From positions 896,001-960,000 of the forward strand of contig CAWHXY010000004.1 of assembly GCA_963833575.1 (NCBI GenBank): a DNA stretch of 64,000 nucleotides, given 5' to 3'. The notes under the pieces were generated by a model, which did no database searches, had not been told where the DNA came from, and worked only from the letters and a program-made list of their open reading frames with translations. The translations under genes and the position numbers were made by a program. Below are positions 20,533 to 56,175 of the stretch, piece by piece; position 1 is the stretch's first letter, and the number at the start of each line of letters is the position of its first letter. This stretch comes from Candidatus Bathyarchaeota archaeon. Its GTDB lineage: Archaea > Thermoproteota > Bathyarchaeia > Bathyarchaeales > Bathycorpusculaceae.

Positions 20533-21075
20533 ATGTCCTGTGAACCATGGCAATGTGCAGAAATAGCCTCAACTAAAAAAGCAAACCCCATAACTAAACC
20601 CGAGATAGCAGTAGCAATGATCAAAAAAGCCCAACGTCCCCTTCTTATTGTGGGAAGCAATGCGACTGAAAGGTACATGGAAGGCAAACAATTAATCGAA
20701 TACATGATTGACTTTGCTAACGCCTCCAAAGTACCAGTGGTAGCAACTGCTCACATGGTGGGCGAATTCATAAAGCGTGGATACCAACCAGCGGCATTTA
20801 TGAATGCAATGGAGATTGGAAACCTAGTAGTTGATCCAACCTGGCAGGGGTTGGACGGCAAAGGACACCCAGACTTAGTTATGTTTGTCGGGTTGCCTTA
20901 CTATGTTGAATCGTTGATGCTCTCAGGGCTCAAACATTTTGCACCGGACCTAAAAACTATGACTCTCGACAACCTGTTTCATGTGCATGCGAGCTGGTCT
21001 TTCCCAAATGCAACCCTAGAAGAATGGGCTGCAAACCTCAAAGTAATGACCTCAAAATTTAATGGAGGAAATTAA
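20533..21075 (+). CDS. cdhB: ACDS complex epsilon subunit
   Basis: IKKAQRPLLIVG, WQGLDGKGHPDL, A.WSFPN; position after cdhA. Confidence 0.93.
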   Translation: MSCEPWQCAEIASTKKANPITKPEIAVAMIKKAQRPLLIVGSNATERYMEGKQLIEYMIDFANASKVPVVATAHMVGEFIKRGYQPAAFMNAMEIGNLVVDPTWQGLDGKGHPDLVMFVGLPYYVESLMLSGLKHFAPDLKTMTLDNLFHVHASWSFPNATLEEWAANLKVMTSKFNGGN

Positions 21076-21078
21076 AAA

Positions 21079-23729: not shown

Positions 23730-23735
23730 GGAGAT

Positions 23736-37305: not shown

Positions 37306-37520
37306 TGCAAACAAAACAAACCCCGAATCAAAAAAACAATCTAAAACACAAAGAACAAGATCTACTCTAATTCCCCCCGATATTTTTGACCATAGGTCTG
37401 TTTCTTCTTGACCAAAAGCTCAACTTGAATATGCGTGAAGTTTGGGGTGCATTATGTCAAAAATCCCATGGTTTTATCTAAAATTTGTACATAAAGCTGA
37501 TAAACCCCTTCTGCAAGTAC

Positions 37521-39029
37521 ATGGATTATCACGCGGGAAGGGACCAAATGGGCTGTGGTATCTTTGGCGCTATAAACTATGAAAATCAACCTGTGTTTCC
37601 ATATGTTTACTGGGGGTTACGCGCTCAAAATCATCGAGGGCATCAATCGCACGGGTTTCTTACTTTTAGTGATAAAGAATTTTTTACGTATAAAAATTTA
37701 GATTTAGTTCCTAAAGTGAAAAATGATGCCATAAAAGAATGGTTTGGTCGTCTTCCAGGATCAATAGGTATTGGCAACGTACGATATACAACGTCAGGCA
37801 AATGTGATGACGTCTCCATAATTGAGGGTACACAGCCAGTTGTGGCTTCGGTAAATGGCATAAAACTTGCTCTTTCATTTAACGGCAACATTGTTAACAC
37901 TTTGCCGCTGAGAAAAGAAATGTTTGCAAATTTCCCAGACTTTACCTACAGCTGCGATTCAGACATCGTATGCAACAAAATGCTACTAGCCCTAAAACAA
38001 GGCAAAGACCTGCCGTCTGCAGCTAAAATTGTTATGGAAAGTCTAGATGGGGCATTTAGCGTAACAGGTATAACTGGAGAAGGCGACTTTTTCGCTTTCA
38101 AAGATCCACACGGAATAAAACCCTTGTGTGCAGGTCATGACCCAGCAGGCAAAACCTACGCTTTCTCCTCTGAAACCGTAAGTTTAGACATGAACAGTTT
38201 TGTAAGAGACTTTGAATTAAAACCAGGCGAACTAGTAACCGTTTCACAAGACGGATTCAAACGCACCCAACTTATAGAAAACCCGCGCCCAGCATTTTGC
38301 GCCTTCGAATATGCCTATTTTGCGAGACCTGACTCAAGATTTAACGGAAAATACGTTTATGAAATCCGAGAAGACTTCGGAAGAAACATAGTAAAAGAAA
38401 ACCCTCAAATTGTAAAAGAAAGCGACATCATTCTTTCAGTGCCTGAAACCGGCGATGACTCAGCAATGGGCGTCCACGAAGCGTCTGGTTTAAGATGGGA
38501 ACGCGCGTCAAGACGGCACCGCTATGTTACTGAAAGAGCTTTCATACTTCTAAACGTCGAACGCTTTTCCACCATTGATAAGAAAATTAATATTTTAGGC
38601 TCAAAAGTAGATGGAAAACGAGTTATCATCACCGAAGACAGCATAGTCAGAGGAGACACAACCAAAGTAATCATTGATAAACTTCGCAAAGCAGGAGCCA
38701 AAAGTGTTTACGTATTCGTTACTTTCCCACGCATCATTGGCCCATGCTTCTACGGCATCGACATGTCAACCTACGGTCAACTTGTCGGCTCACGGCATGA
38801 TGCAGAAGGAATCGCAAAAATCATAGGTGCAGACGGCGTATGCTACCAATCCATTGAAGCATTAATAGGAGCCACGGGTCAAACAAAAGATCAACTCTGC
38901 CTAGCCTGCATAAACGGAGAATACCCAACGCCATGTGCACAAAAAATGGCGGACGTAATGAAACAAAGATTTGTGAATGGGTATCAAGAAACAACAAGAA
39001 TTTATGAGTCTGAAGAAGTGCAGCCATAA
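37521..39029 (+). CDS. purF: Amidophosphoribosyltransferase (start 37521 or 37548)
   Basis: CGIFG, HRG, RYTT, NGNI, CAFEYAYFARPDS, EDSIVRG, CFYGIDM, CLAC. Confidence 0.95.
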   Translation: MDYHAGRDQMGCGIFGAINYENQPVFPYVYWGLRAQNHRGHQSHGFLTFSDKEFFTYKNLDLVPKVKNDAIKEWFGRLPGSIGIGNVRYTTSGKCDDVSIIEGTQPVVASVNGIKLALSFNGNIVNTLPLRKEMFANFPDFTYSCDSDIVCNKMLLALKQGKDLPSAAKIVMESLDGAFSVTGITGEGDFFAFKDPHGIKPLCAGHDPAGKTYAFSSETVSLDMNSFVRDFELKPGELVTVSQDGFKRTQLIENPRPAFCAFEYAYFARPDSRFNGKYVYEIREDFGRNIVKENPQIVKESDIILSVPETGDDSAMGVHEASGLRWERASRRHRYVTERAFILLNVERFSTIDKKINILGSKVDGKRVIITEDSIVRGDTTKVIIDKLRKAGAKSVYVFVTFPRIIGPCFYGIDMSTYGQLVGSRHDAEGIAKIIGADGVCYQSIEALIGATGQTKDQLCLACINGEYPTPCAQKMADVMKQRFVNGYQETTRIYESEEVQP

Positions 39030-39093
39030 CTGCGGTCGCAAAGCAAATTAAGTGACCCCTTCTATTTTGTCTTAGCGGAAAGGTGTATCTTTA

Positions 39094-40509
39094 ATGGAAA
39101 AAATTGGTGTGCTGGTTGTTTCTTATGGTGCAAGAGAAGTCGCTATGGTTGACGCACTTCTACAAAGCAAAAAATATCAAGTGGAACTCTACATCGCCGA
39201 CAAACAACGAAATCCTTTCAACGCTGAAAAAGCCACCAAACACGTTGTCATTCCAAATCTAGATGTTGAAGAAATCTGCAAATTCGCGCAGGCAAACAGG
39301 GACAAAATAAGTTTTGCGTTAGTCGGATCAGAAAAACCCATTATTGAAGGTATCCGCGACCAAGTAGAAAAACGCACTGGCATACCTGTTATTTGTCCAA
39401 AGCAACAATACGCTATCGAAGTCAGCAAGGTAGAGCAGCGAGTGCTTTTTGACGAAATCGCGCCAGAAGCTAATCCACGCTTCAAAGTTTTCAATCCATC
39501 CGATTACAAAGATGGTTCAGACGTTAAAACAGACGTTTACCATTGGCTAGATGAACTAGATAACCAAGCTGCAGTCAAGCCCGATAAGCCTGCATTGGGT
39601 AAAGGTGTCGGTGTCTGGGGAGATCACTTTGCCAATAGGGAACAACTTTTTGAGCATTTCATGTCTAACTTTCATTATGGCTCAGTTATCATAGAAGAAA
39701 AAATTGATGGCGAAGAATCAAGTTTCATGGCTTTCTGCGACGGTAAACACTTTTCGCCACTTCCAGATACACGTGACTACAAGCGCGCCTTGGACGATGA
39801 CAAAGGACCAAATACTGGCGGAATGGGCTCTTACAAAGATTCTGGCGACAAATTACCATTTTTAACCGCGATGGAACGCGAACAAGAGCTTTTGTTGGCT
39901 AACAAGATTTTCACGGGTTGGAGCTACAAAATCGAAGATGACTCAGCTCTCAGAGGCGTGCCGCTTTATCTTGCTTTTATGCATACTGGTAAAGGAATTA
40001 AAGTTCTTGAGAACAATAGTCGTCCTGGTGACCCAGAAATAATTAATCTTCTTGCTTTAATCAAAGGTGACTTTGTTGATTTATGTTTCAGGATGATTGA
40101 AGGAAGCTTGGGGATTGTTGAGTTGGAAAAGGCTTCTTCTGTTTTAACTTACAAAGTTCCGCCTGATTACGGTGGCTACGCAGACGTATTTCCAAACCAA
40201 GTGGATCAAGCATCTCTTAACTCGCCAGTTGACCTTTCAAAAGCTTATGCATTAACCAAAAAATATGGCAATAAAATCCGAGTTTACCCTGGCTCAATGG
40301 AAGTTAGATACGGCAAAAACTATGCTTTAAAATCCCGTGCAGTTGGAATTTTAGGCATTGGCGACAGCATTGAGGAAGCACGACAAATCAGCCAAGAAGG
40401 TGCTACGGCAATCACGGGCGGCGGCCTATGGAATCGAACAGATATTGCTACAAAGCAGCATATTGCCAAAGCAGTTAGTCACATGGAAAATTTGAGGTGT
40501 AGAGCATGA
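39094..40509 (+). CDS. purD: Phosphoribosylamine-glycine ligase
   Basis: GKGV, IEEKIDGEE, DYKRA.DDDKGPNTGGMGSY, RPGDPE. Confidence 0.92.
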   Translation: MEKIGVLVVSYGAREVAMVDALLQSKKYQVELYIADKQRNPFNAEKATKHVVIPNLDVEEICKFAQANRDKISFALVGSEKPIIEGIRDQVEKRTGIPVICPKQQYAIEVSKVEQRVLFDEIAPEANPRFKVFNPSDYKDGSDVKTDVYHWLDELDNQAAVKPDKPALGKGVGVWGDHFANREQLFEHFMSNFHYGSVIIEEKIDGEESSFMAFCDGKHFSPLPDTRDYKRALDDDKGPNTGGMGSYKDSGDKLPFLTAMEREQELLLANKIFTGWSYKIEDDSALRGVPLYLAFMHTGKGIKVLENNSRPGDPEIINLLALIKGDFVDLCFRMIEGSLGIVELEKASSVLTYKVPPDYGGYADVFPNQVDQASLNSPVDLSKAYALTKKYGNKIRVYPGSMEVRYGKNYALKSRAVGILGIGDSIEEARQISQEGATAITGGGLWNRTDIATKQHIAKAVSHMENLRCRA

Positions 40510-41552
40510 AACGTGTTTTTATATCTGATTGTGAAGGGCCAATCTCAAAAAATGATAATGCTTTCGAGTTAGCGTCACATTTTATTCCAAACGGAGACAA
40601 ACTTTTCGCTAACATAAGCAAGTACGACGATGTGCTGGCGGATGTTCTGCAGAAACCAGATTACTCAGCGGGCAGCACATTGAAGCTAATTTTGCCATTC
40701 TTCAAAGCATACGATATCACGGACAAACAGATGGAAGACTTTTCAGAAAAAAACATTGTTTTAGTTGCTAACAGCAAAAACACTCTACGCCATTTACAAG
40801 CTATAGCTAATGCTTTCATCATTAGCACCAGCTATGAACATTACATCAAAGCTTTATGTAAAACACTCAATTTTCCATACAAAAACACGTATTGCACCAA
40901 AATATGCCTAGACAAATACGCTATTACATCAAGAGAAAAGGAACGCCTAAAACAAATTGCGCATGAAATCTCCAAGATGCGCTTAATCGATATACCTCAA
41001 GGAGCAAAATCAGTAAATGCCTTTTCAAACAGCGAACAAGCGATAATTCAGCGTTTAGACGAAATTTTCTGGAATGAAATACCCAAAATGACCGTTGGCA
41101 AAGTAATGACCGATGTGGTTACCGTAGGGGGGAAACAAAAAGCCGAAGCAATTCGTGATGCAGTTAAACGCGTAGGTGCAAGCTTAGAGGATGTAATGTA
41201 TGTGGGAGATAGCATAACCGACGTCGAAGCCTTCAAGCTGGTTCGAACCAACGGCGGCTTAACAGTCTCTTTCAATGGTAACAGTTATGCCGTTAAGAAT
41301 GCTGAAGTAGCGATCTTATCTGAAAACAATGTTGTTACTGGCGTGATTGCTGATTTGTTCTGCAGGTTTGGAAAAGAAAAAACAATCAACACCCTCCGAT
41401 CTTGGGGATTTGAGGCGCTTGAAAACAGCGGCGCAATTGATGTTTCGCCTAAAGCAAAATTAGTAACACCCCAAAATATGGAAATGTTGGTAAAAGAAAG
41501 TAGCGAATTTAGAAAAAATGTGCGCGGCGTAGCCATCGGGAGACTCGGATAA
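40506..41552 (+). CDS. HAD-superfamily protein of the EhaR-like family
   Basis: SDCEGPISKNDNA motif I, ISTSY, GG..K, YVGDSITD. Confidence 0.82.
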   Translation: MKRVFISDCEGPISKNDNAFELASHFIPNGDKLFANISKYDDVLADVLQKPDYSAGSTLKLILPFFKAYDITDKQMEDFSEKNIVLVANSKNTLRHLQAIANAFIISTSYEHYIKALCKTLNFPYKNTYCTKICLDKYAITSREKERLKQIAHEISKMRLIDIPQGAKSVNAFSNSEQAIIQRLDEIFWNEIPKMTVGKVMTDVVTVGGKQKAEAIRDAVKRVGASLEDVMYVGDSITDVEAFKLVRTNGGLTVSFNGNSYAVKNAEVAILSENNVVTGVIADLFCRFGKEKTINTLRSWGFEALENSGAIDVSPKAKLVTPQNMEMLVKESSEFRKNVRGVAIGRLG

Positions 41553-42461
41553 GTGGCAAAAGCAGAGATAGAGGACACTTACGCTGAAGCCTTTACCGGA
41601 ATATTTTGTCGAATAATAGTAACTGCAGATGATGAGGAAATCTTGCGTAAGGCGGCTGAAGATTCAACAGCAACACCATCCGTTGTAATTGGCAGAACAG
41701 AAGGCGGAGTTGAAAAATACCTCACTCCCAAAGAAACTCCAGACAAACGTTACGGTGCATTATTGCAGTTCTGGGGAGAAATAAACCCTAAAAAAACTTT
41801 TGCTGAGTCACTCAAAAAGTTTGAAACCGAACTTTCTTACCGTATCAGACAAGACATCCTAGTCAAGCCCTTCACTGCCGTATTTGATTCTCTACCCACT
41901 GCTGAAGGTAAAATTGATATGATGGAAACTGTTGGGCACTGCGGCGACGGCTTTGAATGGGTTGAAAAGCGCGATGGAAGAGAAGTTATCGTCGTGCCTT
42001 TGATGGTTCCTGACTTTGTCATCGAGCATTACTTAGGCTACAGTCGCGGTGTTATGGGTGGGAACTTTTGGATAATTTGCAAAACAAAACAAGCCCTAAA
42101 ACAAGCAGGAAAAAAAGCCTTAGCCGCAATCCACACAGTTGAAGGCGTGGTTACGCCGTTTGATGTGTGTTCCGCGGGCTCCAAACCAGAAACCCATTTT
42201 CCCAAAATTGGTCCAACAACCAACCATCTCTATTGCCCATCGCTAAAGGAACGTTTAGGTAAAGACTCGCTTGTTCCCGAAGGCGTAGGATATATAGCCG
42301 AAATAGTTTACGACGGCATCTCCTTACAAGCCATTAAGCAAGCAACAAAAGCAGGAATAGAAGCCGTTTTGAATATTAATGGTGTTGTGAAAGTTTCCGC
42401 TGGCAACTACGGCGGCAAACTAGGCGAATACAAAATCCCGTTACTGGAGTTGTTTTCATGA
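41553..42461 (+). CDS. ftr: Formylmethanofuran:H4MPT formyltransferase-like protein
   Basis: IEDTYAEAF, GVMGGNF, SAGSK, TTNH.YCP, EIVYDG, SAGNYGGKLG. Confidence 0.88.
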   Translation: MAKAEIEDTYAEAFTGIFCRIIVTADDEEILRKAAEDSTATPSVVIGRTEGGVEKYLTPKETPDKRYGALLQFWGEINPKKTFAESLKKFETELSYRIRQDILVKPFTAVFDSLPTAEGKIDMMETVGHCGDGFEWVEKRDGREVIVVPLMVPDFVIEHYLGYSRGVMGGNFWIICKTKQALKQAGKKALAAIHTVEGVVTPFDVCSAGSKPETHFPKIGPTTNHLYCPSLKERLGKDSLVPEGVGYIAEIVYDGISLQAIKQATKAGIEAVLNINGVVKVSAGNYGGKLGEYKIPLLELFS

Positions 42462-43372
42462 CTAAATTTGATGTCGTTGGTTTTGGCGCACTTAATGTTG
42501 ATGTTATTTTTAAAGTTGATAGACTCGCAAAAGCAGAAGAGGAAAGCTTCGTCGAAGATTACACTGAAGCCTGCGGTGGCTCAGCTGCAAATACAGTAGT
42601 CGCCTTGGCCAGGCTTGGCTGCAAGACAGGGTTCATAGGAAAAGTAGCTGATGATCGAGAAGGTAAACTTCAAATTAACTGTTTTGACAATGAAGGTGTT
42701 GACACCAGCGGAATCATTCAGGCAAAAAAGGGCAAAAGCGGTTCAGTAATGGGGTTCGTGGACAAGAAAGGCGCAAGAACCCTCTACATCAACTCTGGCG
42801 TCAACGACACAATCGAGCCGCGCGAAATAGATTATGGTTATGTTTCTCAAACAAAATTTATACATTACTCGTCTTTTGTTGGGGAAAAATCTCTTCGTGC
42901 CCAGAAAAAGCTCCTAGCTGCTTTGCCTAACACTATAAAAATAAGTTTTGACCCTGGATCGGTCTATGCACAGAAGGGTTTTACAGCCATAGAACCAATT
43001 ATTCGAAGTACTCATGTTTTAATGCCTAATGTCCTTGAACTCGAACTTTTAACTGGGGAAACGGATTACCGTAAAGGCGCCGATTTAATGATTGATGCGG
43101 GCGTAAAAATTGTGGCAGTTAAGCTTGGCGAAAAAGGTAGCTACGTTACTGACGGTCAAGACCAGCTTACAATAGAACCTTTCAAAGTTAAAGCGGTCGA
43201 CACAACTGGTGCTGGCGATGCTTTCTGTGCAGGCTTCCTTTACGGTTTAATTAACAAGAAAAGCCTCTTTGAATGTGGGCAGATTGGGAATTTTGTAGCT
43301 TCCAGAAGCGTGATGGCGTTGGGTGCCCGTGCAGGCTTGCCCTATGTTAAGGATTTAGCATTTCTTTACTAG
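42458..43372 (+). CDS. PfkB/ribokinase family kinase
   Basis: GGSAANT..ALARLG, DTTGAGDAFCAG. Confidence 0.93.
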   Translation: MTKFDVVGFGALNVDVIFKVDRLAKAEEESFVEDYTEACGGSAANTVVALARLGCKTGFIGKVADDREGKLQINCFDNEGVDTSGIIQAKKGKSGSVMGFVDKKGARTLYINSGVNDTIEPREIDYGYVSQTKFIHYSSFVGEKSLRAQKKLLAALPNTIKISFDPGSVYAQKGFTAIEPIIRSTHVLMPNVLELELLTGETDYRKGADLMIDAGVKIVAVKLGEKGSYVTDGQDQLTIEPFKVKAVDTTGAGDAFCAGFLYGLINKKSLFECGQIGNFVASRSVMALGARAGLPYVKDLAFLY

Positions 43373-44173
43373 ATTATCAATTATGCTTTGGAAGATTAGT
43401 TTTCCGTCGCCATACTGTAGCATCTGATGTTCGCGAGTCCAGTTGGGTTGTTGCCACCAGTACATTGATCTCTCTGGGTGAGGCATTAAACCAAAAATGT
43501 TTCCTTCCCTGTTACATATTCCAGCAATATCATAAGTGGAGCCGTTTGGATTAATTGGATAACTGCCGTTTGCAATGTTGCCGTTTTTGTCGCAGTATCG
43601 AAAAACAACCATATCGTTATCGATTAATTTTGCCAGCATCTCTTCTTCTTTTTCCTTAGGAAACAATAACCTGCCTTCTCCATGGGCAATAGGCATCCCT
43701 AACACTTTGCCAACTGGAATTTTATTCGTAAAAATGCTTTTTCCTTTATTTTCATGCTTAAGATAAACCCATTGGCACTTGAAGCCCGATGGCTCATTTG
43801 TAGTCAATGTTACTTCTGGATAGGTGCTTACTCCTTCCAAACCTGGAAGTAAACCGTATTCAACAAGGATTTGGAAGCCGTTGCAAATGCCCAGAATTGG
43901 TCTGCCTTCATCGATGAAAGTTTCCATTTCTTTTCCTAATTTGACTGAGAGGTGTCTTGCAAAAATCACGCCGGAACGCACATAATCGCCGAACGAGAAG
44001 CCGCCTGGAAAAACCAGCACTTGATAGTCCAGCAGGTTTTTGCGTTTCATTAACTCGTTAACATGTAAAGTTTCTGCTTTAACACCTATTTCTTGAAATG
44101 CCCGTTGGGTTTCGGCGTCACAGTTGGTACCGCCGACACGCATAACGCAGACTTTGATTTCTTCTTGGTTCAT
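43355..44173 (-). CDS. purQ: FGAM synthase glutaminase subunit
   Basis: GTNCD, PGGFSFGD, LGICNGFQ, AHGEG, MPHPER. Confidence 0.95.
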   Translation of the reverse strand: MNQEEIKVCVMRVGGTNCDAETQRAFQEIGVKAETLHVNELMKRKNLLDYQVLVFPGGFSFGDYVRSGVIFARHLSVKLGKEMETFIDEGRPILGICNGFQILVEYGLLPGLEGVSTYPEVTLTTNEPSGFKCQWVYLKHENKGKSIFTNKIPVGKVLGMPIAHGEGRLLFPKEKEEEMLAKLIDNDMVVFRYCDKNGNIANGSYPINPNGSTYDIAGICNREGNIFGLMPHPERSMYWWQQPNWTREHQMLQYGDGKLIFQSIIDNLVKKC

Positions 44174-46554
44174 TAGGATTCCCCGCTTAACGTTTTCTTC
44201 CAAGCATGCCGCAACTCGACAAGTGAAGCATCGACCACCGTTTTCTGATTTAATCCGTGAATGGCCAGTTTCTCATTTTTGGTTACTTTCCCAATTTGGG
44301 CACACATTTTACCCTTCATCAAAGCTTCAAATTCTTTTCTGTCTTGTTCCGCCACTTCCATAAGGAAACGGCTATTTGACTCCGAAAATAAGATAAAGTC
44401 ATTCCGTTCTAGTGGTTTGCCAGGCACTTTTGATAAATCCAGTTCTAACCCATAGCCGCCTGCAAATGCCATCTCCGCTGCAGCTACTGCTAATCCTCCT
44501 TCTGAGAGGTCGTGGCATGATTTGACTAAACCAGAATCGATGGCTTTGGTTACGGCTTTGAATGTGCGTTTGGCTTTTGCTCCTTTGACTTTGGGTACGT
44601 TTGCGCCTAAGTAGCCTTTGAGTTTGTAGTATTCTGAGCCGCCAAGTTCGTTGAAGGTTTCTCCGATAATGTAGAGTAGGTTGCCTGGTGCTTTCAAATC
44701 CATGGATGTGGTGTATTGAAGATTTGGAATCACGCCAACTGCTGTAATAAGAAGAGTCGGTGTGATTGGACCTAGAGGAGACTCGTTATAGAGACTGTCT
44801 TTTCCAGAGATGAATGGCGTCCTAAACGCTGTTGCAAAATCGTAGCAGGCTTCACAAGCTTTAACCAGTGAACCCAATCGCTCTGGTTTCTCAGGATTTC
44901 CCCATGTAAAATTATCTAGCAGAGCAATTCTTCTACCGCCAACAGCAATGTTATTTCTCACTGCCTCGTCAATTGCTGAAGCCGCCATCCAATAAGCATC
45001 AATCTTACCGTAATTCGGGTTCATGCCGCAAGAAATCGTTAAACCTTTCCATGAATCATCAAGGGGTTTTAGAACAGCTGCATCGTTTGGCCCTGCATAT
45101 TCTCCCTGAAGAGGCTTGAGTGTGGTGTTTCCTTTTACTTCGTGGTCGTATGTTCGGATGACGCTTTCTTTGCTGGCAATGTTTGGCGAAGAAAGAAGCT
45201 GCATTAAGCTTTCAGTTAGGTTCTGCGGTTCAGGGAACTCTGGTTCAATGAAACTTTGTTTTTCAATGGTTGCGATTTTCATGCTTTTGCATGGATTGAA
45301 CAGAAATGCCATTTCCATGTCTGCAACCTTTTCGCCGTTAAAACTGAGTTGCAAACGGCGTTCGATTGTCAGTTTGCCAATTGCAGTGGCTTGAACATCT
45401 TCCTTCTCAAAAACTGCCATAACTTGCTCGAGATTTTCCGGTGGAACTGTTATAAGCATTCTCTCTTGTGATTCAGAAATGTAAATTTCCCATGGAGCCA
45501 AGCCCTGATGCTTCAAAGGCACCTTGCCAAGGTCAATTGCAACTCCGCAGTCAAATCTCTCGCCAGTTTCTCCGACTGCTGAAGATAAGCCTCCTCCGCC
45601 AAGGTCAGTTGTCGCCGACGCCAATTGTAAATCGCGGATTTCTATTATTGCCCGCTTCACTTTCTCTTCTTCGATTGGGTCGGCGATTTGTACGGCAGGA
45701 CGGGATATTTCTTCTGATTTCTCAGTTAATTCGGCTGAGGCAAATGTTACGCCGTGGATTCCGTCACGACCAGTTTTTCCTCCTGCTACGACGATTATGT
45801 GTTCTGGTTTAGCATTTTTTGTGAATTTGCTTAATGGTAAAATCCCGATGCATCCGCAATGTACAGTGACGTTGCCTGTGTAGCTTTCGTCAAAATATAT
45901 TGCTCCGTTAACAGTTGGGATGCCCATGTTATTTCCATACGCGCTAATTCCCGCGGTGACGCCCATGTAAACGTATTTTGGATGTTTGACTCCTGCGGGA
46001 AGCTTGTTATAATCATAGTCTAATGGTCCGAAGCCTAAAACATCCGTGCAGGCGATTGGATCAGCCCATACACCAAGGATATCTCGGATGACGCCTCCGA
46101 CCCCTGTAGCTGCCCCACCGAAAGGCTCAACTGCAGACGGATGATTGTGAGTTTCAACTTTGGCTGCTATTCCATAGCCTTTGTCAAATTTTACGATCCC
46201 TGCGTTATCTTCAAAAACGCTAAAGCACCAAGGGGCTTTGATTTCTTTGGTGGCTTTTTGAATGTAGGTTTTGAATAGGCTGTCGATTTCTTTGCCGTCA
46301 ATTTGGATTTTTCCTTTGAATGTTTTGTGGTAGCAGTGTTCGGACCACGTTTGACTAATGGTTTGCAGTTCCAAGTCTGTTGGGTTTCTGCCTTCAGATT
46401 TGAAGTAGGTTTGAATGCTTTTCATTTCTTCTAAGCTTAAGCCCAAAGCTAGTTCATTGCTGATTTCAATTAGCTGTTGGTCAGTTGCTGTGGTCAGTGC
46501 AGCTTCGTAAAGTGAGTAGTTTGCTTCTCGTTGGATGTAGAGGTTAGCGTTCAT
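44173..46554 (-). CDS. purL: FGAM synthase subunit PurL
   Basis: WSEHCYHK, ETHNHPS, DLGGGG, SESQERM, HDLSEGG. Confidence 0.96.
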   Translation of the reverse strand: MNANLYIQREANYSLYEAALTTATDQQLIEISNELALGLSLEEMKSIQTYFKSEGRNPTDLELQTISQTWSEHCYHKTFKGKIQIDGKEIDSLFKTYIQKATKEIKAPWCFSVFEDNAGIVKFDKGYGIAAKVETHNHPSAVEPFGGAATGVGGVIRDILGVWADPIACTDVLGFGPLDYDYNKLPAGVKHPKYVYMGVTAGISAYGNNMGIPTVNGAIYFDESYTGNVTVHCGCIGILPLSKFTKNAKPEHIIVVAGGKTGRDGIHGVTFASAELTEKSEEISRPAVQIADPIEEEKVKRAIIEIRDLQLASATTDLGGGGLSSAVGETGERFDCGVAIDLGKVPLKHQGLAPWEIYISESQERMLITVPPENLEQVMAVFEKEDVQATAIGKLTIERRLQLSFNGEKVADMEMAFLFNPCKSMKIATIEKQSFIEPEFPEPQNLTESLMQLLSSPNIASKESVIRTYDHEVKGNTTLKPLQGEYAGPNDAAVLKPLDDSWKGLTISCGMNPNYGKIDAYWMAASAIDEAVRNNIAVGGRRIALLDNFTWGNPEKPERLGSLVKACEACYDFATAFRTPFISGKDSLYNESPLGPITPTLLITAVGVIPNLQYTTSMDLKAPGNLLYIIGETFNELGGSEYYKLKGYLGANVPKVKGAKAKRTFKAVTKAIDSGLVKSCHDLSEGGLAVAAAEMAFAGGYGLELDLSKVPGKPLERNDFILFSESNSRFLMEVAEQDRKEFEALMKGKMCAQIGKVTKNEKLAIHGLNQKTVVDASLVELRHAWKKTLSGES

Positions 46555-46802
46555 TTATGCTCCTCAACATTTATTGTGTAATTATCTTTGGTTGGGTTTG
46601 CCAAAAGGCGCTTGCTCATGTCTTCCGCTTTTGCTTTGGCTTCGGCAATTGTTGAGGCATCAAGAGTGACTGTGTAAACTTTGCTAACGTCTACGCTTTC
46701 GACTTTGTATCCGAGTTCTTTGAGTAAATGGGATGTTGTTTCTCCTTCAGGATTGCTGTGGCCTGGCTTTAAGCTGACCTCTATTTTCGCTAGGTATTTC
46801 AT
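46551..46802 (-). CDS. purS: FGAM synthase subunit PurS
   Basis: LKPG..NPEGET, LLANP. Confidence 0.92.
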   Translation of the reverse strand: MKYLAKIEVSLKPGHSNPEGETTSHLLKELGYKVESVDVSKVYTVTLDASTIAEAKAKAEDMSKRLLANPTKDNYTINVEEHK

Positions 46803-46860
46803 AAAGCCTTTAAATCGAGGTTTAGGATTTAAAGACTTTCGCCATAAAGAATGCAAAACT

Positions 46861-47940
46861 TTACGTTAAAACCAATTTTTTGTTTTGGAACTTTATTTCA
46901 ACCGTTTGTTTGTCTGTTACTTTTCCTATTATCTCAGGCTTTAAGTCGCCTTGCTCAAGCGTATTAATTGCTTTGTCGGTCTCTTTTTTGTCTACGATTA
47001 TGCCAAAACCCCAACCCATATTGAATGTTTTGAACATTTCTTCATCTGTGATTGTAAAGCCGAGTTCAGCTGCTGTTTTTTGGATCAAGCCAAAAATCGG
47101 TTGTGGCTTAAAATTGTTGAATTCGAAGCCTATTCCAGGCGAGACACTAACAAGGTTATTGAATTTCATGTAAGCGTCGCCTGTTATGTGTACAGCTCCT
47201 TTGACTTTCACTTCACTGGCTAGTTTGAGTAAGGGTTTAACATAGATTTTAGTGGGTTCTAATGCTTCCAAAACGATTTCTCTATCCAATCCTTTGGGGA
47301 TATCGTTGAGTTCGTATTTTCCTCCCCATTCTTTAAAGAGGATTTTTCTTGCCATTGTTATGCCGTTGCTATGCAATCCGCTGCTCGCTAAACCTATAAT
47401 TGGGTCACCTGGTTTGATGTTTTCTCCAGTTATGATTCTTTGTTTTTCAACTTGACCGACTGAGGCGACGACCATGTCAAACCCAACCTTTTCGGTTACC
47501 CCTTTAATTATTTCAGCTACGTCGCCTGTTTCTCCATTAGTAACTGGACATTCAGATTCAGCTGCGCCTTGAATAATTCCTTTCAGCCACTCTTTTACAA
47601 GCAGTGGGTTACTTTCTTGTGCATGTATATTGTCTGCGATTGCAAGTGGCTTAGCTCCTGATCGAATTACATCATTAACGACCATAGCAACTGCATCAAT
47701 GCCGATTGTGTCATATTTCCTGGCTAATTGTGCTAAGAGAACTTTGGTGCCTACTCCTTCAATTTCAAGATCCAAAAACAAATTTTCTGCAATTGGAAAA
47801 ATATTGCCATAAGGTAAATGCATGATGCCGCCATAAAGGCTGTGCTTGTATGTTTCTTTCAGGTTCTGCAGCGCCTTTTTTGATTCAACACGTTGTTTTC
47901 GGTTAACGCCTGCATCAGTATAAGTAAAGTTTTTGGGCAT
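46861..47940 (-). CDS. purM: AIR synthetase
   Basis: Y.DAGV, EGVGTK, GET, SSGLHSNG, HITG, TFNMG. Confidence 0.94.
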   Translation of the reverse strand: MPKNFTYTDAGVNRKQRVESKKALQNLKETYKHSLYGGIMHLPYGNIFPIAENLFLDLEIEGVGTKVLLAQLARKYDTIGIDAVAMVVNDVIRSGAKPLAIADNIHAQESNPLLVKEWLKGIIQGAAESECPVTNGETGDVAEIIKGVTEKVGFDMVVASVGQVEKQRIITGENIKPGDPIIGLASSGLHSNGITMARKILFKEWGGKYELNDIPKGLDREIVLEALEPTKIYVKPLLKLASEVKVKGAVHITGDAYMKFNNLVSVSPGIGFEFNNFKPQPIFGLIQKTAAELGFTITDEEMFKTFNMGWGFGIIVDKKETDKAINTLEQGDLKPEIIGKVTDKQTVEIKFQNKKLVLT

Positions 47941-48080: not shown

Positions 48081-48917
48081 TTGCCCAATCCCAAATATCA
48101 TATCTACTTAGAATATTCTGAGCTAGATAAGTCTGGAGTGCGCTTCAATATTTCTCAAGAGGAACTTAATCGAACCTTCGCCACACCCTTCAATGCCAAC
48201 CAACCCTTTTGGTTCGCTGGTAGACTTCTCAACCCCATCAAAGCCTCTAAAGTTGTACTCTTCTGGTCGTATGAAACAGCCGATAAACTAAAGCTGCCTA
48301 ACCAAGAAAGCATTGTAGCTGTCAAAGACAAAAAATATCTAATCGAAAGCATTATCAAAGGCAAAGTCAAAGGGGCGTACCTTTGCACAGAAAAATTCTT
48401 AGAGACACCAGAGAGAGCTACTGTACCCACTCAATCGGTAGAGGCTTCTTTGGGAAATACCCGGCGCAGAATTTTCGTTGTTTCTGGCACTGACGATGTA
48501 ATGAAACAAGCTCTTACTGGGTCTTTGACCAAACTTTTGCTATCGCCGGTTATAATTCATGAAGAGCCTGGTTTAGGCAGAAAAATAATAGAACATTTCA
48601 CAGACTACAATGACGTGAAATTTGCCCTAGTTTTGCTCTCCCCAGATGATCATGTTTACTCTAGGGCTGATCCATTCACAAAAAGCAAGCTAAAGCCTCG
48701 TCAAGATGTTATTTTCCTACTTGGCTTCCTGATAGGCGCGCTCGGCAAAGGCAACGTACTTGTATTCTTCAGAGAACACGAAAACTTTGAAATCCCTCTT
48801 GATTTTGAAGGAATAAAATTCACAGCATTCGACGACCGTGACAGTTGGAAACTTGCACTAATACGGGAACTAACTAAAAGCGGGTACACAGTCGACGGAA
48901 AAAGAATTCTAAAATAA
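48081..48917 (+). CDS. Protein with C-terminal Cap12/Pycsar-type TIR-like domain
   Basis: IFVVSG.D, IIEHF, FALVLLSPDD, PRQDVIFLLG...GALG, EIP.DF.GI. Confidence 0.8.
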   Translation: MPNPKYHIYLEYSELDKSGVRFNISQEELNRTFATPFNANQPFWFAGRLLNPIKASKVVLFWSYETADKLKLPNQESIVAVKDKKYLIESIIKGKVKGAYLCTEKFLETPERATVPTQSVEASLGNTRRRIFVVSGTDDVMKQALTGSLTKLLLSPVIIHEEPGLGRKIIEHFTDYNDVKFALVLLSPDDHVYSRADPFTKSKLKPRQDVIFLLGFLIGALGKGNVLVFFREHENFEIPLDFEGIKFTAFDDRDSWKLALIRELTKSGYTVDGKRILK

Positions 48918-50345: not shown

Positions 50346-52979
50346 ATGGAAAAAACAAGAAATAGAATTGTAACTATTGTGATTGCGATATTTTTAATGA
50401 TTTCAATGTCAGCTTCGATAATGCTAGTGTCGAATGCTAGTGCTCATACTCCTGCTTGGCAGATTCCAACATACGCATATGTGCAGGCTGTGCCTAACCC
50501 TGTGGGTGTAGGCCAGCAAGCGATCATATATATGTGGGTTGACAAGATACCCGATGGAGCAGAACTAGGCAACAGCATTCGATTCCAGAACTACCAACTT
50601 ACCATTACTGCACCTGACAAAACAGTAACAACAAAGACTTTTGCAACTGTCCAAGATCCCACGTCAAATCAGCACTATTATTTCACTCCAACTCAAACCG
50701 GCACATACACCCTTAACTTTACATTCCCAGGATACGCATACACATATACAGGGCTCCTCGCAGGCTTCTTCGGTCCTCCCGCGCCAAGCGATTACGTAAA
50801 TGATACCTATTTGGCCAGTTCAGCATCTACAACGTTTACTGTCCAGAACTCAGCTATACCTACAATTCCAGCCAATCCGCTTCCATCAGCTTATTGGACA
50901 CGCCCAATTTATGGAGAGAACCCTAACTGGTACTCAATTTCATCAAACTGGCTAGGCATCAATGCACCAGGATATACTTCAGGTTACCCTGGTGATGCTG
51001 TGGGTCCTCAAACGGGCCATGTTATGTGGACTAGGTCGGTTCAAAGCGGTGGAGTGGTCGGCGGTAACAACTTTGAAATTCAAGGCGCCACTTACTTCGA
51101 GGGTTCTGCCTACGCTCAAAGATTTGAAGAACCAATAATACTTGATGGAAAACTCTACTATGCAGAACCAATATCGTTCGGGGGCAACAACTACGGGCCA
51201 ACGGACTGCGTTGATCTGCGCACTGGACAGCTTATTTGGTCTCGCACTGATGTACCGCAGCCATCCTTCGGTCTCATATTTGACGTTCAGGAACCCAACC
51301 AACACGGAACTTACCCACCAATACTAATTGATGCTGTTGGGCAAAGCTTCTTTTCGACTGCGTCTGTCTGGAGAGCTTTTGATGCAGACACAGGAGATCC
51401 GATGTTCAACGTAACTAACATTCCTTCAGGCGTAACGGCTATGGGCGCAAATGGGGAATACTTGATATATGTCTTGACAAATGATGGCACTGTTGCACAT
51501 CCTCAGTATTATTTAGCTCAATGGAACTCGTCTAACCTGTGGTCCGGTCAATACAACGGCGCATCAACAACACCATCCGTAGTTCCACCTATAACTGACG
51601 GGAGCAACCCCCTTATGTACGACTGGAACATTTCGATACCCTCACTAAACACCCTGACCTCAACATCTTCTATAGTTGCAGCGTTCACCAACAATATGCT
51701 GATTGGCATGAGCGGCTCCTACCCTGGAGCTCCTAGTTTGTTCAGTGTAGCAAGCTGGTCTCCCTACACATACTTCGGTGTAAACCTTAACGCTACTAAA
51801 GGTGCAGTCGGTTCGATACTGTGGACAAATACTGTTCAACCGCCAGCGGGCAATATTAGTGTCTCATATGCCGGGGCTGATCCAACGGTCGGTGTCTTCG
51901 CTGAAACATATAAGGAAACGATGCAGCGAGTAGGCTTCAGTATGGCGACAGGCAAGCAAATTTGGGGTCCAGTTGGCGATCAAGTGGCCTTCCAATACTA
52001 CAGCACTACTGGATACTACAGCGGCGGAATAGGCGGATGCGTACTTGCTTACGGTAAACTCTACAGCGCTGGATATGGCGGAATAGTCTACTGTTATGAT
52101 CTGAACAATGGGAACCTACTTTGGACTTATGGTAATGGTGGCGAGGGCAACAGTACTAGTATGGATTATGGTGTACGTGGTAACTATCCAACTAGCATAT
52201 ATGCGGTTGGCAACGGCGTGGTGTACACGATTACTACGGAGCATACTGTTCAAACACCAATTTACAAGGGTGCAGAGACACGCGGCATTAACGCTACAGA
52301 CGGAACGGAAATCTATACTCTCGATGATTACTGTGGCTCGTTTGCTACTGCAACAGCTGCTATCGCAGACGGCTTTGCAACAGTTTTCAATGGCTATGAT
52401 AACCAAATTTATAGCATAGGCAGAGGACCTAGCGCCTTAACAGTAGAAGCGCCAAAGACATCAAACGAACTGGGCAAATCGTTGGTAATTGACGGTTCAG
52501 TACTGGATATTTCTGCAGGTACAAAACAGGCACAGCAGGCAGCTGATTTCCCTAACGGTGTTCCAGTGGCATCTGACGCGAGCATGAAGGATTGGATGGG
52601 CTATGTTTACCAACAGAAACCCTTGCCCAGTAACTTTACTGGTGTTCAGGTGACGATCGACGTTTTAGACTCTAATGGCAACTACCGAAACATTGGCACT
52701 GTTAATACTGATGCAACCGGCATGTACAGTTTGTCTTGGAAACCTAACATTTCAGGCAACTACACTGTCGTCGCTACTTTCCACGGCACCAACGCTTATT
52801 GGCCATCGTATTCAGAAACCACTTTCGTAGTAGATCCGGCAGCAGCTACACCAGCTCCAACGACAGCGCCAGTAGCTTCAAACACTGACACATACATTCT
52901 GGCTTCAGCTATCGCAATCATAGTCGTGCTAATCATCGTGGGCGCAATCCTGATGATGATGGTACGCAAACGACCATAA
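50346..52979 (+). CDS. Large secreted PQQ-like beta-propeller surface protein, paralogue 1
   Basis: Signal peptide, PLP..YWTRPIY, propeller repeats, C-terminal Ig-like region, TM, RKRP tail. Confidence 0.9.
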   Translation: MEKTRNRIVTIVIAIFLMISMSASIMLVSNASAHTPAWQIPTYAYVQAVPNPVGVGQQAIIYMWVDKIPDGAELGNSIRFQNYQLTITAPDKTVTTKTFATVQDPTSNQHYYFTPTQTGTYTLNFTFPGYAYTYTGLLAGFFGPPAPSDYVNDTYLASSASTTFTVQNSAIPTIPANPLPSAYWTRPIYGENPNWYSISSNWLGINAPGYTSGYPGDAVGPQTGHVMWTRSVQSGGVVGGNNFEIQGATYFEGSAYAQRFEEPIILDGKLYYAEPISFGGNNYGPTDCVDLRTGQLIWSRTDVPQPSFGLIFDVQEPNQHGTYPPILIDAVGQSFFSTASVWRAFDADTGDPMFNVTNIPSGVTAMGANGEYLIYVLTNDGTVAHPQYYLAQWNSSNLWSGQYNGASTTPSVVPPITDGSNPLMYDWNISIPSLNTLTSTSSIVAAFTNNMLIGMSGSYPGAPSLFSVASWSPYTYFGVNLNATKGAVGSILWTNTVQPPAGNISVSYAGADPTVGVFAETYKETMQRVGFSMATGKQIWGPVGDQVAFQYYSTTGYYSGGIGGCVLAYGKLYSAGYGGIVYCYDLNNGNLLWTYGNGGEGNSTSMDYGVRGNYPTSIYAVGNGVVYTITTEHTVQTPIYKGAETRGINATDGTEIYTLDDYCGSFATATAAIADGFATVFNGYDNQIYSIGRGPSALTVEAPKTSNELGKSLVIDGSVLDISAGTKQAQQAADFPNGVPVASDASMKDWMGYVYQQKPLPSNFTGVQVTIDVLDSNGNYRNIGTVNTDATGMYSLSWKPNISGNYTVVATFHGTNAYWPSYSETTFVVDPAAATPAPTTAPVASNTDTYILASAIAIIVVLIIVGAILMMMVRKRP

Positions 52980-53592: not shown

Positions 53593-56175
53593 ATGAAAAA
53601 CAGAAAAATGAAAAACAGAAAATTTATGCTATCTCTAATTCTCATGATAGTGCTAAGTATGTCAATGATGATGCAAATTCCTCATACTGTACATGCGGCA
53701 TCTACGCTTAATGTGACAGACTATTTGTATGTCAGCGCTGGGCCTAGTCCTGTAGGCGTTGGACAAACCATATACCTTAACCTCTTCTTCACTAAGCCTA
53801 TACCCACAGTCAGCGGTTTCGTTTCTACATTGTACACTGGTATGTCAATCAATGTTATCAAGCCAGATGGAACTAATGAAACTCTCGGACCTTACACGGC
53901 TGATACTACGGGCGGTGTTGGAGGACTTTCATTCGCACCTGCTACAGTTGGAAACTATACTTTCCAAGGAATATTTCCGGGGCAAAATATAGGGACCGAT
54001 GCTACGGGCACGACCTATATTATGGATGCTTCCAATAGCCCTCCTGTTTCAGTTGTCGTTCAACAAGGGCAAATATCGTATAATTCTGGCTCTCCGCTCC
54101 CAACAAACTACTGGACACGCCCAATATACGCATCGAACTTTTACTGGCAAACTATTGGTGGAAACTGGTACGGTTTAGGAAGACCCGCCTTCGACAACAC
54201 TGGTGGATACGATGGAACTGGAAACAACTTCCAACAATACAGCACTGCGCCAACTACTGCTCACATACTTTGGACTAAGGCAACAACAACCGGAGGTCAA
54301 CCTGGCGGCGAAACTATCGCTAATGAAGAGAATGCTTACTCAACAGCATCCCCGCTCTACCACCTATTTGAACCAATAATTCTCAATGGAGTACTTTATG
54401 AAAACTTGTGGGCAGCTCAAACCGATAACGCAGGCATTATTGCAATAGACCTCCGCACAGGACAAACATTGTGGGATCAGAACACTTCTGACGTCTTAAT
54501 TTATGGTCAAGTTGTAAATTTCCACAACAATGAAGAATTTGGCTCTCAAGCATTTCTATGGACATCGCATTTAGCCGGCTATGACGGCATGGGTATGTTT
54601 GGCCCAAATGCAGTCTACGATTATAATATATTGGATCCAGTGACTGGAAATCAGATGGCTACCGTAACCGATGTTCCCAGCAGCATAGCTAATCTCTTCG
54701 GAACATCACCAAGTGCACTTATAGATTCCAATGAAACCAATACCTCAGGAGCAATTCTAATCTACTATTTAGGCGACAGCAATAATCTAATAATGTGGAA
54801 CTCAAGCCAATGTCTTAGTCCTTCCGGCGGATTCGGATCACCCACAGGCTCTTACAAGCCATCAGGATCCTACAACTTTACAGCAGGCATACAATGGTCA
54901 ATCACGCTTCCTAACGCAAACCCAGCATTTGGCATCGCTGAGATGAATAATCAAGCAATACTTTTGAGTTCACATCCACCGACACTTTCTACGTTTGCCG
55001 ACCAATTTGGCGCTGATTTTGCAACTGATGTGGCCTATGATCCCGCTACTGGCGCTAAGCTTTGGGGACCAACTAACCAGACGACAACGAACTTTGATGA
55101 CGTTGGAATAGTTGCTGTAGGAGATGGTGCATACGTCAGACATGACAAAGACACAAATCAACTCTATGGCTACTCACTGACAACTGGCCAACTGCTCTGG
55201 GGACCAACACAACTCGTAGGAAACGCTTTGACCCATCTTTTCGCTTCTGCTGCTATAGCTTACGGTAGAGTTTACATTTGGGACTTCGGCGGCTACGTAA
55301 ATGCTGTTGATCTCAAAACTGGAAAACTCGACTGGACCTACACTCGCGGATCAGCAGGTTATGACACACCCTACGGCATATATCCAATCTGGGTCTACGG
55401 AACACAAACCATTGCTAACGGAATGCTGTTCCTCTCTGAAGGTCGACTATATGATCCACCGCTGTTTCCAGGCGGAGAAAAACTCGCGATAAACTGCACT
55501 GATGGTTCACTTGTCTGGGCAATAAGCGGAGCATTCATGAGATCGCCAAGCCCTGTTGCTGATGGAGAACTGCTTGGATTTAACGGCTACGACAGTCAAA
55601 TATACGCTTTCGGCACTGGACCAACAAGAGTTGCGGTCAATGCACCTGATCCTGTTACGTCTGTAGGTTCGCCTATGATCTTACGCGGCACAGTCACTGA
55701 CATCTCCAGCGGCTCACAACAAGAAGCAGTTGCAGCAAACTTCCCTAACGGGTTACCATGCGTTTCTGACGCTAGTATGACTTCATTTATGGAAGCCGTT
55801 TACGAACAGCAGCCAATGCCAACCAACATTACAGGTGTTCCTGTTACGGTAAGTGTTACTGACTCGAATGGAAACTGCTACAGCATAGGCACTACTTCAA
55901 CTGATCCAAGCGGCATGTTCACGCTAACTTGGGCACCTACAATCTCAGGTAACTATACCGTAACCGCATCGTTTGCAGGCACGCAATCGTATTATTCATC
56001 TTCCGCGGAAACATCCTTCTATGCTACTGCTGCTCACCCAGACACTGCTGCTCCAACAGCTACACCTGTCTCAATTGCTGACCAATACTTCATCCCGCTG
56101 TCAATCGCAATGATTCTCGTAATAATCATAATTGGCGCCATACTTGCAGTACTGTTGCTAAGAAAACGACCATAA
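53593..56175 (+). CDS. Large secreted PQQ-like beta-propeller surface protein, paralogue 2
   Basis: Same architecture as 50346-52979 (YWTRPIY, A.FPNG.P..SDASM, RKRP). Confidence 0.9.
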   Translation: MKNRKMKNRKFMLSLILMIVLSMSMMMQIPHTVHAASTLNVTDYLYVSAGPSPVGVGQTIYLNLFFTKPIPTVSGFVSTLYTGMSINVIKPDGTNETLGPYTADTTGGVGGLSFAPATVGNYTFQGIFPGQNIGTDATGTTYIMDASNSPPVSVVVQQGQISYNSGSPLPTNYWTRPIYASNFYWQTIGGNWYGLGRPAFDNTGGYDGTGNNFQQYSTAPTTAHILWTKATTTGGQPGGETIANEENAYSTASPLYHLFEPIILNGVLYENLWAAQTDNAGIIAIDLRTGQTLWDQNTSDVLIYGQVVNFHNNEEFGSQAFLWTSHLAGYDGMGMFGPNAVYDYNILDPVTGNQMATVTDVPSSIANLFGTSPSALIDSNETNTSGAILIYYLGDSNNLIMWNSSQCLSPSGGFGSPTGSYKPSGSYNFTAGIQWSITLPNANPAFGIAEMNNQAILLSSHPPTLSTFADQFGADFATDVAYDPATGAKLWGPTNQTTTNFDDVGIVAVGDGAYVRHDKDTNQLYGYSLTTGQLLWGPTQLVGNALTHLFASAAIAYGRVYIWDFGGYVNAVDLKTGKLDWTYTRGSAGYDTPYGIYPIWVYGTQTIANGMLFLSEGRLYDPPLFPGGEKLAINCTDGSLVWAISGAFMRSPSPVADGELLGFNGYDSQIYAFGTGPTRVAVNAPDPVTSVGSPMILRGTVTDISSGSQQEAVAANFPNGLPCVSDASMTSFMEAVYEQQPMPTNITGVPVTVSVTDSNGNCYSIGTTSTDPSGMFTLTWAPTISGNYTVTASFAGTQSYYSSSAETSFYATAAHPDTAAPTATPVSIADQYFIPLSIAMILVIIIIGAILAVLLLRKRP

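Follow-up and report, generated by a model that had tools for sequence, protein, structure and literature searches.

A 64,000-nucleotide stretch of the genome of Candidatus Bathyarchaeota archaeon (GenBank assembly GCA_963833575.1; contig CAWHXY010000004.1, positions 896001 to 960000 of the forward strand, or C4:896001-960000; here called the window) carries genes for de novo purine synthesis. Next to them lie three genes encoding a haloacid dehalogenase (HAD)-fold protein of the EhaR family, an Ftr-like formyltransferase, and a PfkB kinase. Here, we report a computational analysis of this trio, which probably fills the glycinamide ribonucleotide (GAR) formylation slot of the purine pathway, a gap that has been open for over a decade.

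Five genes on the plus strand (37485-43372) form one translationally coupled row. The first, purF (37485-39029), encodes amidophosphoribosyltransferase (GATase_7 and GATase_6 domains; TIGR01134, 312 bits; cut-off, 350), and the second, purD (39094-40509; 471 amino acids [aa]; GARS_N, GARS_A, and GARS_C; TIGR00877, 221 bits; cut-off, 288), encodes GAR synthetase, whose product is the substrate of the gap step. The trio follows and comprises the EhaR-family protein (P0001; 40506-41552; 348 aa; PF08282 and PF00702), a predicted Mg-dependent phosphoryl-transfer enzyme; the Ftr2/EhaS-type formyltransferase (P0002; 41553-42461; 302 aa), proposed to act on GAR or its riboside; and the EhaT-type PfkB kinase (P0003; 42458-43372; 304 aa). 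Read directly from the sequence, the purD stop and the HAD start share an ATGA at 40506-40509, the HAD stop codon TAA (41550-41552) is followed without a gap by the GTG at 41553 with which the Ftr-like gene starts, and the stop of the latter shares an ATGA with the PfkB start at 42458-42461. On the minus strand, facing this row, are purQ (43355-44203; convergent to the trio; NF002252, 321.7 bits, above cut-off), purL (44173-46554; TIGR01736, 697 bits, above cut-off), encoding the amidotransferase that consumes formylglycinamide ribonucleotide (FGAR), purS (46551-46856; PF02700, 72 bits), and purM (46861-47940; TIGR00878, 257.9 bits, above cut-off). An earlier note, made from the letters of this DNA, had described purF, purD, purQLS, and purM without purN or purT, and had placed the trio directly behind purD with overlapping or abutting codons; Pfam and NCBIfam domains and genome-wide searches agree with the former, and the open reading frame coordinates and junctions match the latter.

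PurF and PurD of the window both score below their NCBIfam equivalog cut-offs, and PurD of EhaR-bearing bacteria reaches 390 to 590 bits; the Bathyarchaeal enzymes are divergent. In one wetland metatranscriptome run, contigs from relatives (90 to 95% alike) covered parts of purF, purD, Ftr2, and PfkB, and no contig from these relatives covered most of the HAD gene; contigs of this kind speak neither for nor against expression in the organism itself. A sigma-70 promoter and terminator scan of the window did no better than on shuffled sequence, the model being bacterial and the host archaeal.

The assembly (2.75 Mb, 8 contigs) is 94.3% complete. Nowhere in the genome was there a match to Formyl_trans_N (PF00551), so that PurN was not found, and a genome-wide search with the PurT model gave a best match of 47 bits inside a 1,092-aa carB-like frame, so that PurT was not found either. 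Since PurD makes GAR and PurL consumes FGAR, no known enzyme connects the two in this organism. For the other purine formylation, that of aminoimidazole carboxamide ribonucleotide (AICAR), the genome has two PurP (DUF1297) paralogs in tandem (228 and 251 bits; G000:C1:32639-34278), and the PurH transformylase domain was not found in it; AICAR formylation here thus uses formate and ATP, and the GAR step is without PurT. The earlier note had allowed that the window might hold the genome's only and canonical ftr. The genome has a separate one, a canonical Ftr1 of another clade (C4:343256-343678; 338 aa), 37% identical to the window protein. FwdA (801 bits) and Mch (387 bits) were also found, and with Ftr1 they imply that formyl-methanofuran and formyl-tetrahydromethanopterin (formyl-H4MPT) should both be on hand.

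The three encoded proteins

Relatives of the HAD protein are labeled "energy-converting hydrogenase A subunit R" by JGI. Among these relatives, a solved structure exists only for AF1437 of Archaeoglobus fulgidus (PDB 1Y8A; 112 bits), a structural-genomics "hypothetical protein" of the same family, with motif I in the same D-x-E-G-P form and an entry that carries no function. An AlphaFold2 model built on an alignment of 58 family members had a pLDDT of 95.2, and its first Foldseek match was 1y8a (TM-score, 0.84/0.94), followed by SerB phosphoserine phosphatases and ThrH; the protein is thus confidently modeled as a SerB-like HAD with a Rossmann-like core and a cap domain. Motif I has the nucleophile D8 and, at position +2, Glu (E10) instead of the Asp of DxD, and the motif II Ser/Thr, motif III Lys, and motif IV acidic pair of HAD phosphatases are all present. 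The same 58 diverse members all have K212 and D239 (motifs III and IV), and at least 90% of them have D8, E10, S107, and D235. EhaR, which retains the HAD catalytic residues, is predicted to be a phosphoryl-transfer enzyme. Given the SerB-like fold, EhaR was also considered as the missing archaeal phosphoserine phosphatase, an assignment set aside because of the fusions and the complementarity with PurN and PurT described below.

The Ftr-like protein has the two-lobe architecture and the length of about 300 aa of its family (FTR, PF01913, 148.5 bits; FTR_C, PF02741, 179.7 bits). It exceeds the cut-off of NF002554 (335.5 bits; cut-off, 297) and falls below that of the fhcD/ftr equivalog TIGR03119 (239.3 bits; cut-off, 292.6). 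A tree of 40 Ftr sequences split into two clades with 100% support on both sides (Shimodaira-Hasegawa-like approximate likelihood ratio test [SH-aLRT]). The Ftr1 of this genome fell among the canonical copies, and the other clade, Ftr2, consisted of all 20 EhaR-adjacent copies and L118, which by its coordinates is the EhaR-adjacent copy of the genome that holds locus L007. The window protein is therefore not an ortholog of the characterized Ftr1 clade. In an alignment with PDB 1M5H (184 bits), E250 matches the Glu of that structure; this catalytic residue is invariant in 29 Ftr2 sequences and common to Ftr1, and its counterpart in FhcD (Glu252) is described as stabilizing the oxyanion (PMC6926001). 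Ftr2 and Ftr1 have 46 conserved positions in common; 19 substitutions specific to its clade, plus an insertion of about 9 residues, set Ftr2 apart. At least two Ftr genes were present in 15 of 15 EhaR-bearing archaeal genomes tested, against one in the two Bathyarchaeia without EhaR.

Measured against Ftr/FhcD (PDB 1FTR, 2FHJ, 1M5H, and 6S6Y), Ftr2 thus has the two-lobe fold family and the catalytic Glu in common, and its chemistry, an amine attacking an N-formyl carbon, is probably alike. Unlike Ftr/FhcD, it forms a clade apart from every canonical Ftr sampled, is always paired with the HAD protein and the kinase, and is seen only where PurN and PurT are not, save for a reported case in ANME-2a/2b; its proposed acceptor is the glycinamide amine, as opposed to methanofuran.

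Within the tree, Methanobacterial EhaS (L073, L075, L076, and L079; compare L026) nests in the Bathyarchaeal Ftr2 clade (97% and 99% SH-aLRT), and the Ftr1 copies of Methanobacteria and Bathyarchaeia form separate clades, a pattern that suggests lateral transfer of the trio between both lineages.

The kinase matches PF00294 (181.9 bits) and lies below every equivalog cut-off, its best NCBIfam match being ribokinase (TIGR02152, 176.8 bits; cut-off, 299.65). Its nearest PDB entries are ribokinases, and its translation carries the ribokinase-type motifs NxD and GAGD. It is accordingly predicted to phosphorylate the 5-OH of a riboside or of ribose.

Distribution and neighborhood of the trio

Using a 16-sequence EhaR alignment, 80 EhaR loci were retrieved from species-representative genomes, and their neighbors were located by tblastn with the window proteins as queries. 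Among 53 Bathyarchaeia-type loci, purD lay upstream of EhaR in 52, Ftr2 occurred in 49 and PfkB in 47, and 46 loci combined all three; of the seven that do not, four are cut by contig ends. Upstream of purD, purF was conserved in 44 of the 53, and purQ or purL was nearby in 35. The earlier note had left room for a linkage of trio and pur genes that is not conserved; with purD, Ftr2, and PfkB all flanking EhaR in 46/53 loci, the linkage holds.

In Methanobacteria, EhaR, Ftr2, and the kinase come after the eha polyferredoxin genes in 4 of 5 loci. The mention in the earlier note of a similar trio (ehaR/S/T) at the end of the Methanothermobacter eha operon agrees with these loci and with Kaster et al. 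(2011), where EhaS is described as Ftr-like and EhaT as ribokinase-like. The proteins are orthologous to those of the window and follow the same HAD-Ftr2-PfkB order; unlike the Methanothermobacter trio, that of the window adjoins purine genes and no hydrogenase genes. In two Methanobacterium-type loci (L076 and L079), a purF-like gene (488 to 499 aa) follows the kinase at a distance of about 5 kb, a weak purine link in an eha context.

This arrangement is the ground for a different reading, in which the trio is part of C1 cofactor metabolism or of the Eha hydrogenase system, as subunits or in the making or repair of methanofuran or H4MPT, and its position among pur genes is incidental. Co-transcription of ehaR/S/T with eha in Methanothermobacter, read as a sign of hydrogenase subunits (Kaster 2011), speaks for it, as do the place of the Methanobacterial trio after the polyferredoxin genes, the Ftr2 score above the NF002554 cut-off, and the joint occurrence of Ftr2 and PurN reported for ANME-2a/2b (Chadwick 2022). 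Set against these, no hydrogenase genes flank EhaR or its partners in the window, the family occurs in bacteria too, the same HAD protein and kinase there accompany a PurN-family enzyme, and the distribution is strictly complementary to that of PurN and PurT; a PIRSF analysis moreover calls the last eha genes "not tightly linked" to the hydrogenase. We give this reading very little weight.

Complementarity was first scored in 42 EhaR-bearing genomes taken from the loci (19 bacterial, 2 Methanomassiliicoccus, 1 Aenigmatarchaeota, 5 Methanobacteria, and 15 Bathyarchaeia), with PurN counted over its cut-off and PurT at an E value of ≤1e-20. Neither PurN nor PurT was found in any of the 42, against 11/14 and 6/14 controls, respectively; of the 27 genomes from outside the Bathyarchaeia, 25 had PurD above its cut-off. 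Among 151 evenly sampled genomes from the host's own phylum, 17 carried EhaR (all from its own class, 17/20), 55 carried PurN, and 35 carried a PurT-like gene, and none of the 17 overlapped with PurN or PurT. Three class members have no EhaR; two of these have a full-length PurT-like gene, PurD, and one Ftr, and the third is without PurD. In 201 genomes from the Thermodesulfobacteriota-type phylum of locus L054, EhaR was found in 45, PurN in 104 (92 over the cut-off), and PurT in 2, again with no overlap (0/45). Complementarity therefore repeats in separate phyla of two domains, and purN or purT elsewhere in the genome or its relatives, which the earlier note had named as damaging to its proposal, turned up neither in this genome nor in any EhaR-bearing genome of these three sets. 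A sample from the phylum of genome G026 had EhaR in 150 of 151 and hence no variation; PurN and PurT were not searched there.

The same bacterial sample bears on whether the trio might formylate another amine (AICAR or its riboside, phosphoribosylamine, or a non-purine metabolite), with GAR handled by something else. Forty-seven of the 201 genomes had none of EhaR, PurN, PurT, and the divergent PurN-family protein PurN2 described below, and the five of them that were tested (G193, G197, G201, G204, and G207) all had PurD and only weak PurN-family matches of 41 to 76 bits, so at least one further solution to GAR formylation probably exists; this, together with a trio substrate that is deduced from context, leaves such a reading some room. 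The AICAR step, though, is already covered, by the two PurP here and by the PurH transformylase domain in 5/5 EhaR-bearing bacteria tested, in which only the GAR step is consequently open. The anti-correlation is specific to the GAR enzymes, and the trio lies directly after purD. We regard formylation of another amine as very unlikely.

New in this analysis is that EhaR and the kinase are constant partners and the formyltransferase is exchangeable. EhaR occurs beyond the H4MPT archaea, including in bacteria, and one locus holds PfkB, a PurN-like gene, and EhaR in Methanomassiliicoccus (L050; the set is in 1 of 2 loci), Thermodesulfobacteriota (L054, L056, L059, and L061), Aerophobetes (L077, also with purF and purM upstream), and Bipolaricaulota (L074). 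Most such loci are ordered kinase-PurN2-EhaR; in L066, an unclassified "bacterium" at a contig edge, PurN2 adjoins EhaR. PurN2 is a divergent PurN-family protein of about 270 to 300 aa with a conserved C-terminal extension (also in loci L087 to L091), retains the PurN catalytic Asn, His, and Asp, and presumably uses formyl-tetrahydrofolate. It thus takes the place that Ftr2 has in Bathyarchaeia and Methanobacteria. Where EhaR was not beside PurN2, the latter was found elsewhere in 5/5 such genomes, once next to the kinase. In the bacterial sample, 49/201 genomes had PurN2, none of them together with a canonical PurN over its cut-off; among the 45 genomes with EhaR, 42 had PurN2. The kinases of the bacterial trios have the window kinase as their best match in this genome (148 to 210 bits; Desulfomonile L083, 93 bits), as against 51 to 68 bits, where matched at all, to the genome's other PfkB paralog.

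Fusions were sought among EhaR-family representatives at 50% identity. One (P0195; 599 aa; 2 cluster members) is a natural PurN2-EhaR fusion, and two others (P0201, 899 aa, 1 cluster member; P0216, 961 aa, 3 members) join an ATP-grasp domain to EhaR; the NCBIfam and PDB matches of the latter domain, all weak, are only to PurT or PurK. A 682-aa "long EhaR" (P0273) was rejected as an artefact, its C-terminal half being low-complexity read-through with no domain. On metagenome contigs, proteins of 961 to 970 aa (L122:10001-12895 and L123:10001-12913) combine an N-terminal ATP-grasp part of about 590 aa with a C-terminal EhaR; their neighbors (a class II aminoacyl-tRNA synthetase, a UvrD-type helicase, and a DNA methylase) gave no purine signal. 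Nor did other neighbors of bacterial EhaR genes (MVD-like, GDSL, PEMT/rhodanese, Cache histidine kinase, macro domain, and AI-2E transporter). Desulfobacterales-type genomes encode, immediately before EhaR and in the position where others have the kinase and PurN2, a conserved Cys-rich protein of about 110 aa that matches nothing in Pfam (L064:707-1039, L068:300-632, L069:9633-9965, L070:107-475, and L071:9660-9986).

Because the HAD protein and the kinase stay constant as the formyltransferase is swapped between unrelated folds, the former two appear tied to the acceptor or product and not to the donor. The occurrence of the same pair with a PurN-family enzyme in bacteria, together with the fusions, strengthens the claim that the trio fills the GAR-formylation slot.

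Another reading of these data leaves EhaR and the kinase out of the formylation itself. The formyltransferase (Ftr2 here, PurN2 in bacteria) would be the GAR transformylase alone, and the pair would do an adjacent, separate job, such as ribose or riboside salvage feeding phosphoribosyl pyrophosphate, moving a phosphate on a pentose, or repair and salvage of leaked glycinamide riboside; HldE and GmhB are a known kinase and phosphatase pair that moves a phosphate on heptose. The kinase is indeed most like ribokinase, PurN2 keeps the PurN catalytic residues, some bacteria have EhaR at a locus apart from PurN2 and the kinase, and 7 of the 49 PurN2 genomes are without EhaR. Yet natural fusions join EhaR to formyltransferase-type domains, translational coupling links the start and stop codons of the trio, PurN2 accompanies EhaR in 42/45 genomes and a second Ftr does so in 15/15 EhaR archaea tested, and the three-way partnership is kept in two bacterial and several archaeal phyla despite the exchanged formyltransferase fold. 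Action of the transferase alone therefore seems improbable to us.

A candidate route from GAR to FGAR

GAR formylation is the sole de novo purine step without a known enzyme in Methanobacteria, Methanopyrus, Archaeoglobi, and ANME-1, a gap pointed out by Brown et al. (2011) and anew by Chadwick et al. (2022). In the former, no GAR transformylase could be identified in two Archaeoglobi, four Methanobacteria (Methanomicrobiales in the text), and M. kandleri, all purine makers; A. fulgidus, from this group without PurN and PurT, has the EhaR homologue AF1437. The latter describes an uncharacterized Ftr2 clade in Archaeoglobales, M. kandleri, Methanothermobacter, ANME-1, and ANME-2a/2b and separately restates the missing GAR enzyme, without connecting the two. 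A full-text literature search, with subscription journals mostly outside its coverage, turned up no publication in which EhaR/S/T have an assigned function or Ftr2 is connected with purines.

We consider it likely that the trio is a GAR-to-FGAR formylation module that replaces PurN and PurT here and in many other anaerobes. This was the core inference of the earlier note, and it is supported by the synteny, the separate Ftr2 clade, the exchangeable transferase, the fusions, and the complementarity. Ftr2 is, in our view, likely to be the transferase of the module. We infer that GAR is the acceptor and that the HAD protein and the kinase act on a pathway intermediate, as obligate partners that would be tied to the acceptor or product and not to the formyl donor. 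The donor would be N5-formyl-H4MPT from the organism's Fwd-Ftr1-Mch branch, and Ftr2 would run the Ftr reaction in the FhcD direction, from formyl-H4MPT to an amine, with the glycinamide aminomethyl group occupying the place of the aminomethylfuran of methanofuran. Formyl-methanofuran may serve as donor instead.

Since the bacteria have a canonical PurD and this genome has a canonical PurL, the overall conversion should be GAR to FGAR, in which case phosphatase and kinase must cancel out. The simplest order of steps, which the earlier note had raised as a possibility, and the likeliest way for the pair to work, is that EhaR would take the 5'-phosphate off GAR, Ftr2 would formylate the riboside, and the kinase would rephosphorylate formylglycinamide riboside with ATP. 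The last step would render a near-isoenergetic formyl transfer irreversible and hand standard FGAR to PurL. We put forward this phosphate cycle only tentatively. It recalls riboflavin synthesis, in which a HAD phosphatase acts mid-pathway on a ribitylamino-pyrimidine phosphate and flavokinase later restores a phosphate; there, too, a phosphate is removed by a HAD phosphatase and put back by a kinase after the chemistry, a resemblance only; the substrates differ.

The proposed net reaction is that of PurN and PurT. PurN acts alone on GAR, without phosphatase or kinase; its fold is unrelated to that of Ftr2, and the two presumably differ in their donor. PurT uses free formate via formyl phosphate, and the trio here has no ATP-grasp protein; a weakly PurT-like ATP-grasp domain does occur fused to EhaR, and if the phosphate cycle holds, its cost would likewise be one ATP per formylation. 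Possibly, although we doubt it, all these arrangements form a third, widespread class of GAR formylation, with EhaR and EhaT constant in an ATP-coupled cycle on dephosphorylated GAR and the transferase drawn from three unrelated folds (Ftr-type with H4MPT-bound formyl, PurN2-type, and PurT-like ATP-grasp).

Several points weigh against a formylation module. The assigned functions of all three proteins derive from comparative genomics. The involvement of both a phosphatase and a kinase in formylation, which costs an ATP, is unexplained, and the argument that the kinase pulls the reaction fits neither bacteria with the strong donor N10-formyl-tetrahydrofolate nor a PurT-like, ATP-dependent partner. 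The Glu at D+2 of EhaR motif I is unusual for a plain phosphatase; enolase-phosphatase E1 has DxE too. Three Bathyarchaeal loci (L024, L027, and L042) have purD-EhaR without adjacent Ftr2 or PfkB. Among bacterial genomes at least 80% complete, the 7/49 with PurN2 and no EhaR are joined by 3/45 with EhaR and no PurN2 (G199, G240, and G275), in which no formyltransferase was found near EhaR and one has the kinase adjacent. Because many of the genomes are related to one another, the zero-overlap counts exaggerate how many independent events lie behind them. Kaster (2011) treats the co-transcribed ehaR/S/T as hydrogenase subunits, and Brown (2011) relays a view that formyl-H4MPT is not a purine formyl donor and notes that labeling data are inconsistent. 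In the data of Chadwick (2022), ANME-1 (Ftr2 present, neither PurN nor PurT) and ANME-2c (PurT, no Ftr2) fit the model, and ANME-2a/2b, reported with both PurN and Ftr2, does not.

The finding offers a concrete three-gene candidate and would reassign three long-unexplained "hydrogenase" genes. Both the problem and its probable answer now also concern Bathyarchaeia and a large part of the sulfate reducers and syntrophic bacteria. If a third class of GAR formylation as described above exists, the purine gap would be closed in Methanobacteria, Methanopyrus, Archaeoglobi, ANME-1, Bathyarchaeia, and about one-fifth of the sampled Thermodesulfobacteriota-type genomes, and EhaR/S/T would not be hydrogenase subunits. 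A phosphate cycle in mid-pathway would be a new feature of a textbook pathway. If Ftr2 uses H4MPT-bound formyl, purine C8 would come straight from the CO2-reduction (Wood-Ljungdahl) pool, with no free formate or ATP-dependent activation, which would bear on how methanogen anabolism is modeled, including the anaplerotic role of Eha, and on ideas about early C1 metabolism.

Other features of the window

Upstream of the purine genes, at 16460-25169 (+), lie genes of acetyl-CoA decarbonylase/synthase and carbon monoxide dehydrogenase: two CooC-like ATPases, cdhA, cdhB, cdhC, cdhD, and cdhE (Pfam domains Prismane, CO_dh, CdhC with ACS_CODH_B_C, CdhD twice, and CbiA/NifH-like). By their domains, they show a predicted Wood-Ljungdahl C1 pool.

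Just past purM, a 278-aa protein (48081-48917, +) has a CAP12/Pycsar-effector TIR domain (PF10137, 80 bits) and may be a defense gene. Farther on, two large paralogs (50346-52979 and 53593-56175, +; 877 and 860 aa) combine a PQQ_2 beta-propeller with bacterial Ig-like domains and are probably surface proteins.

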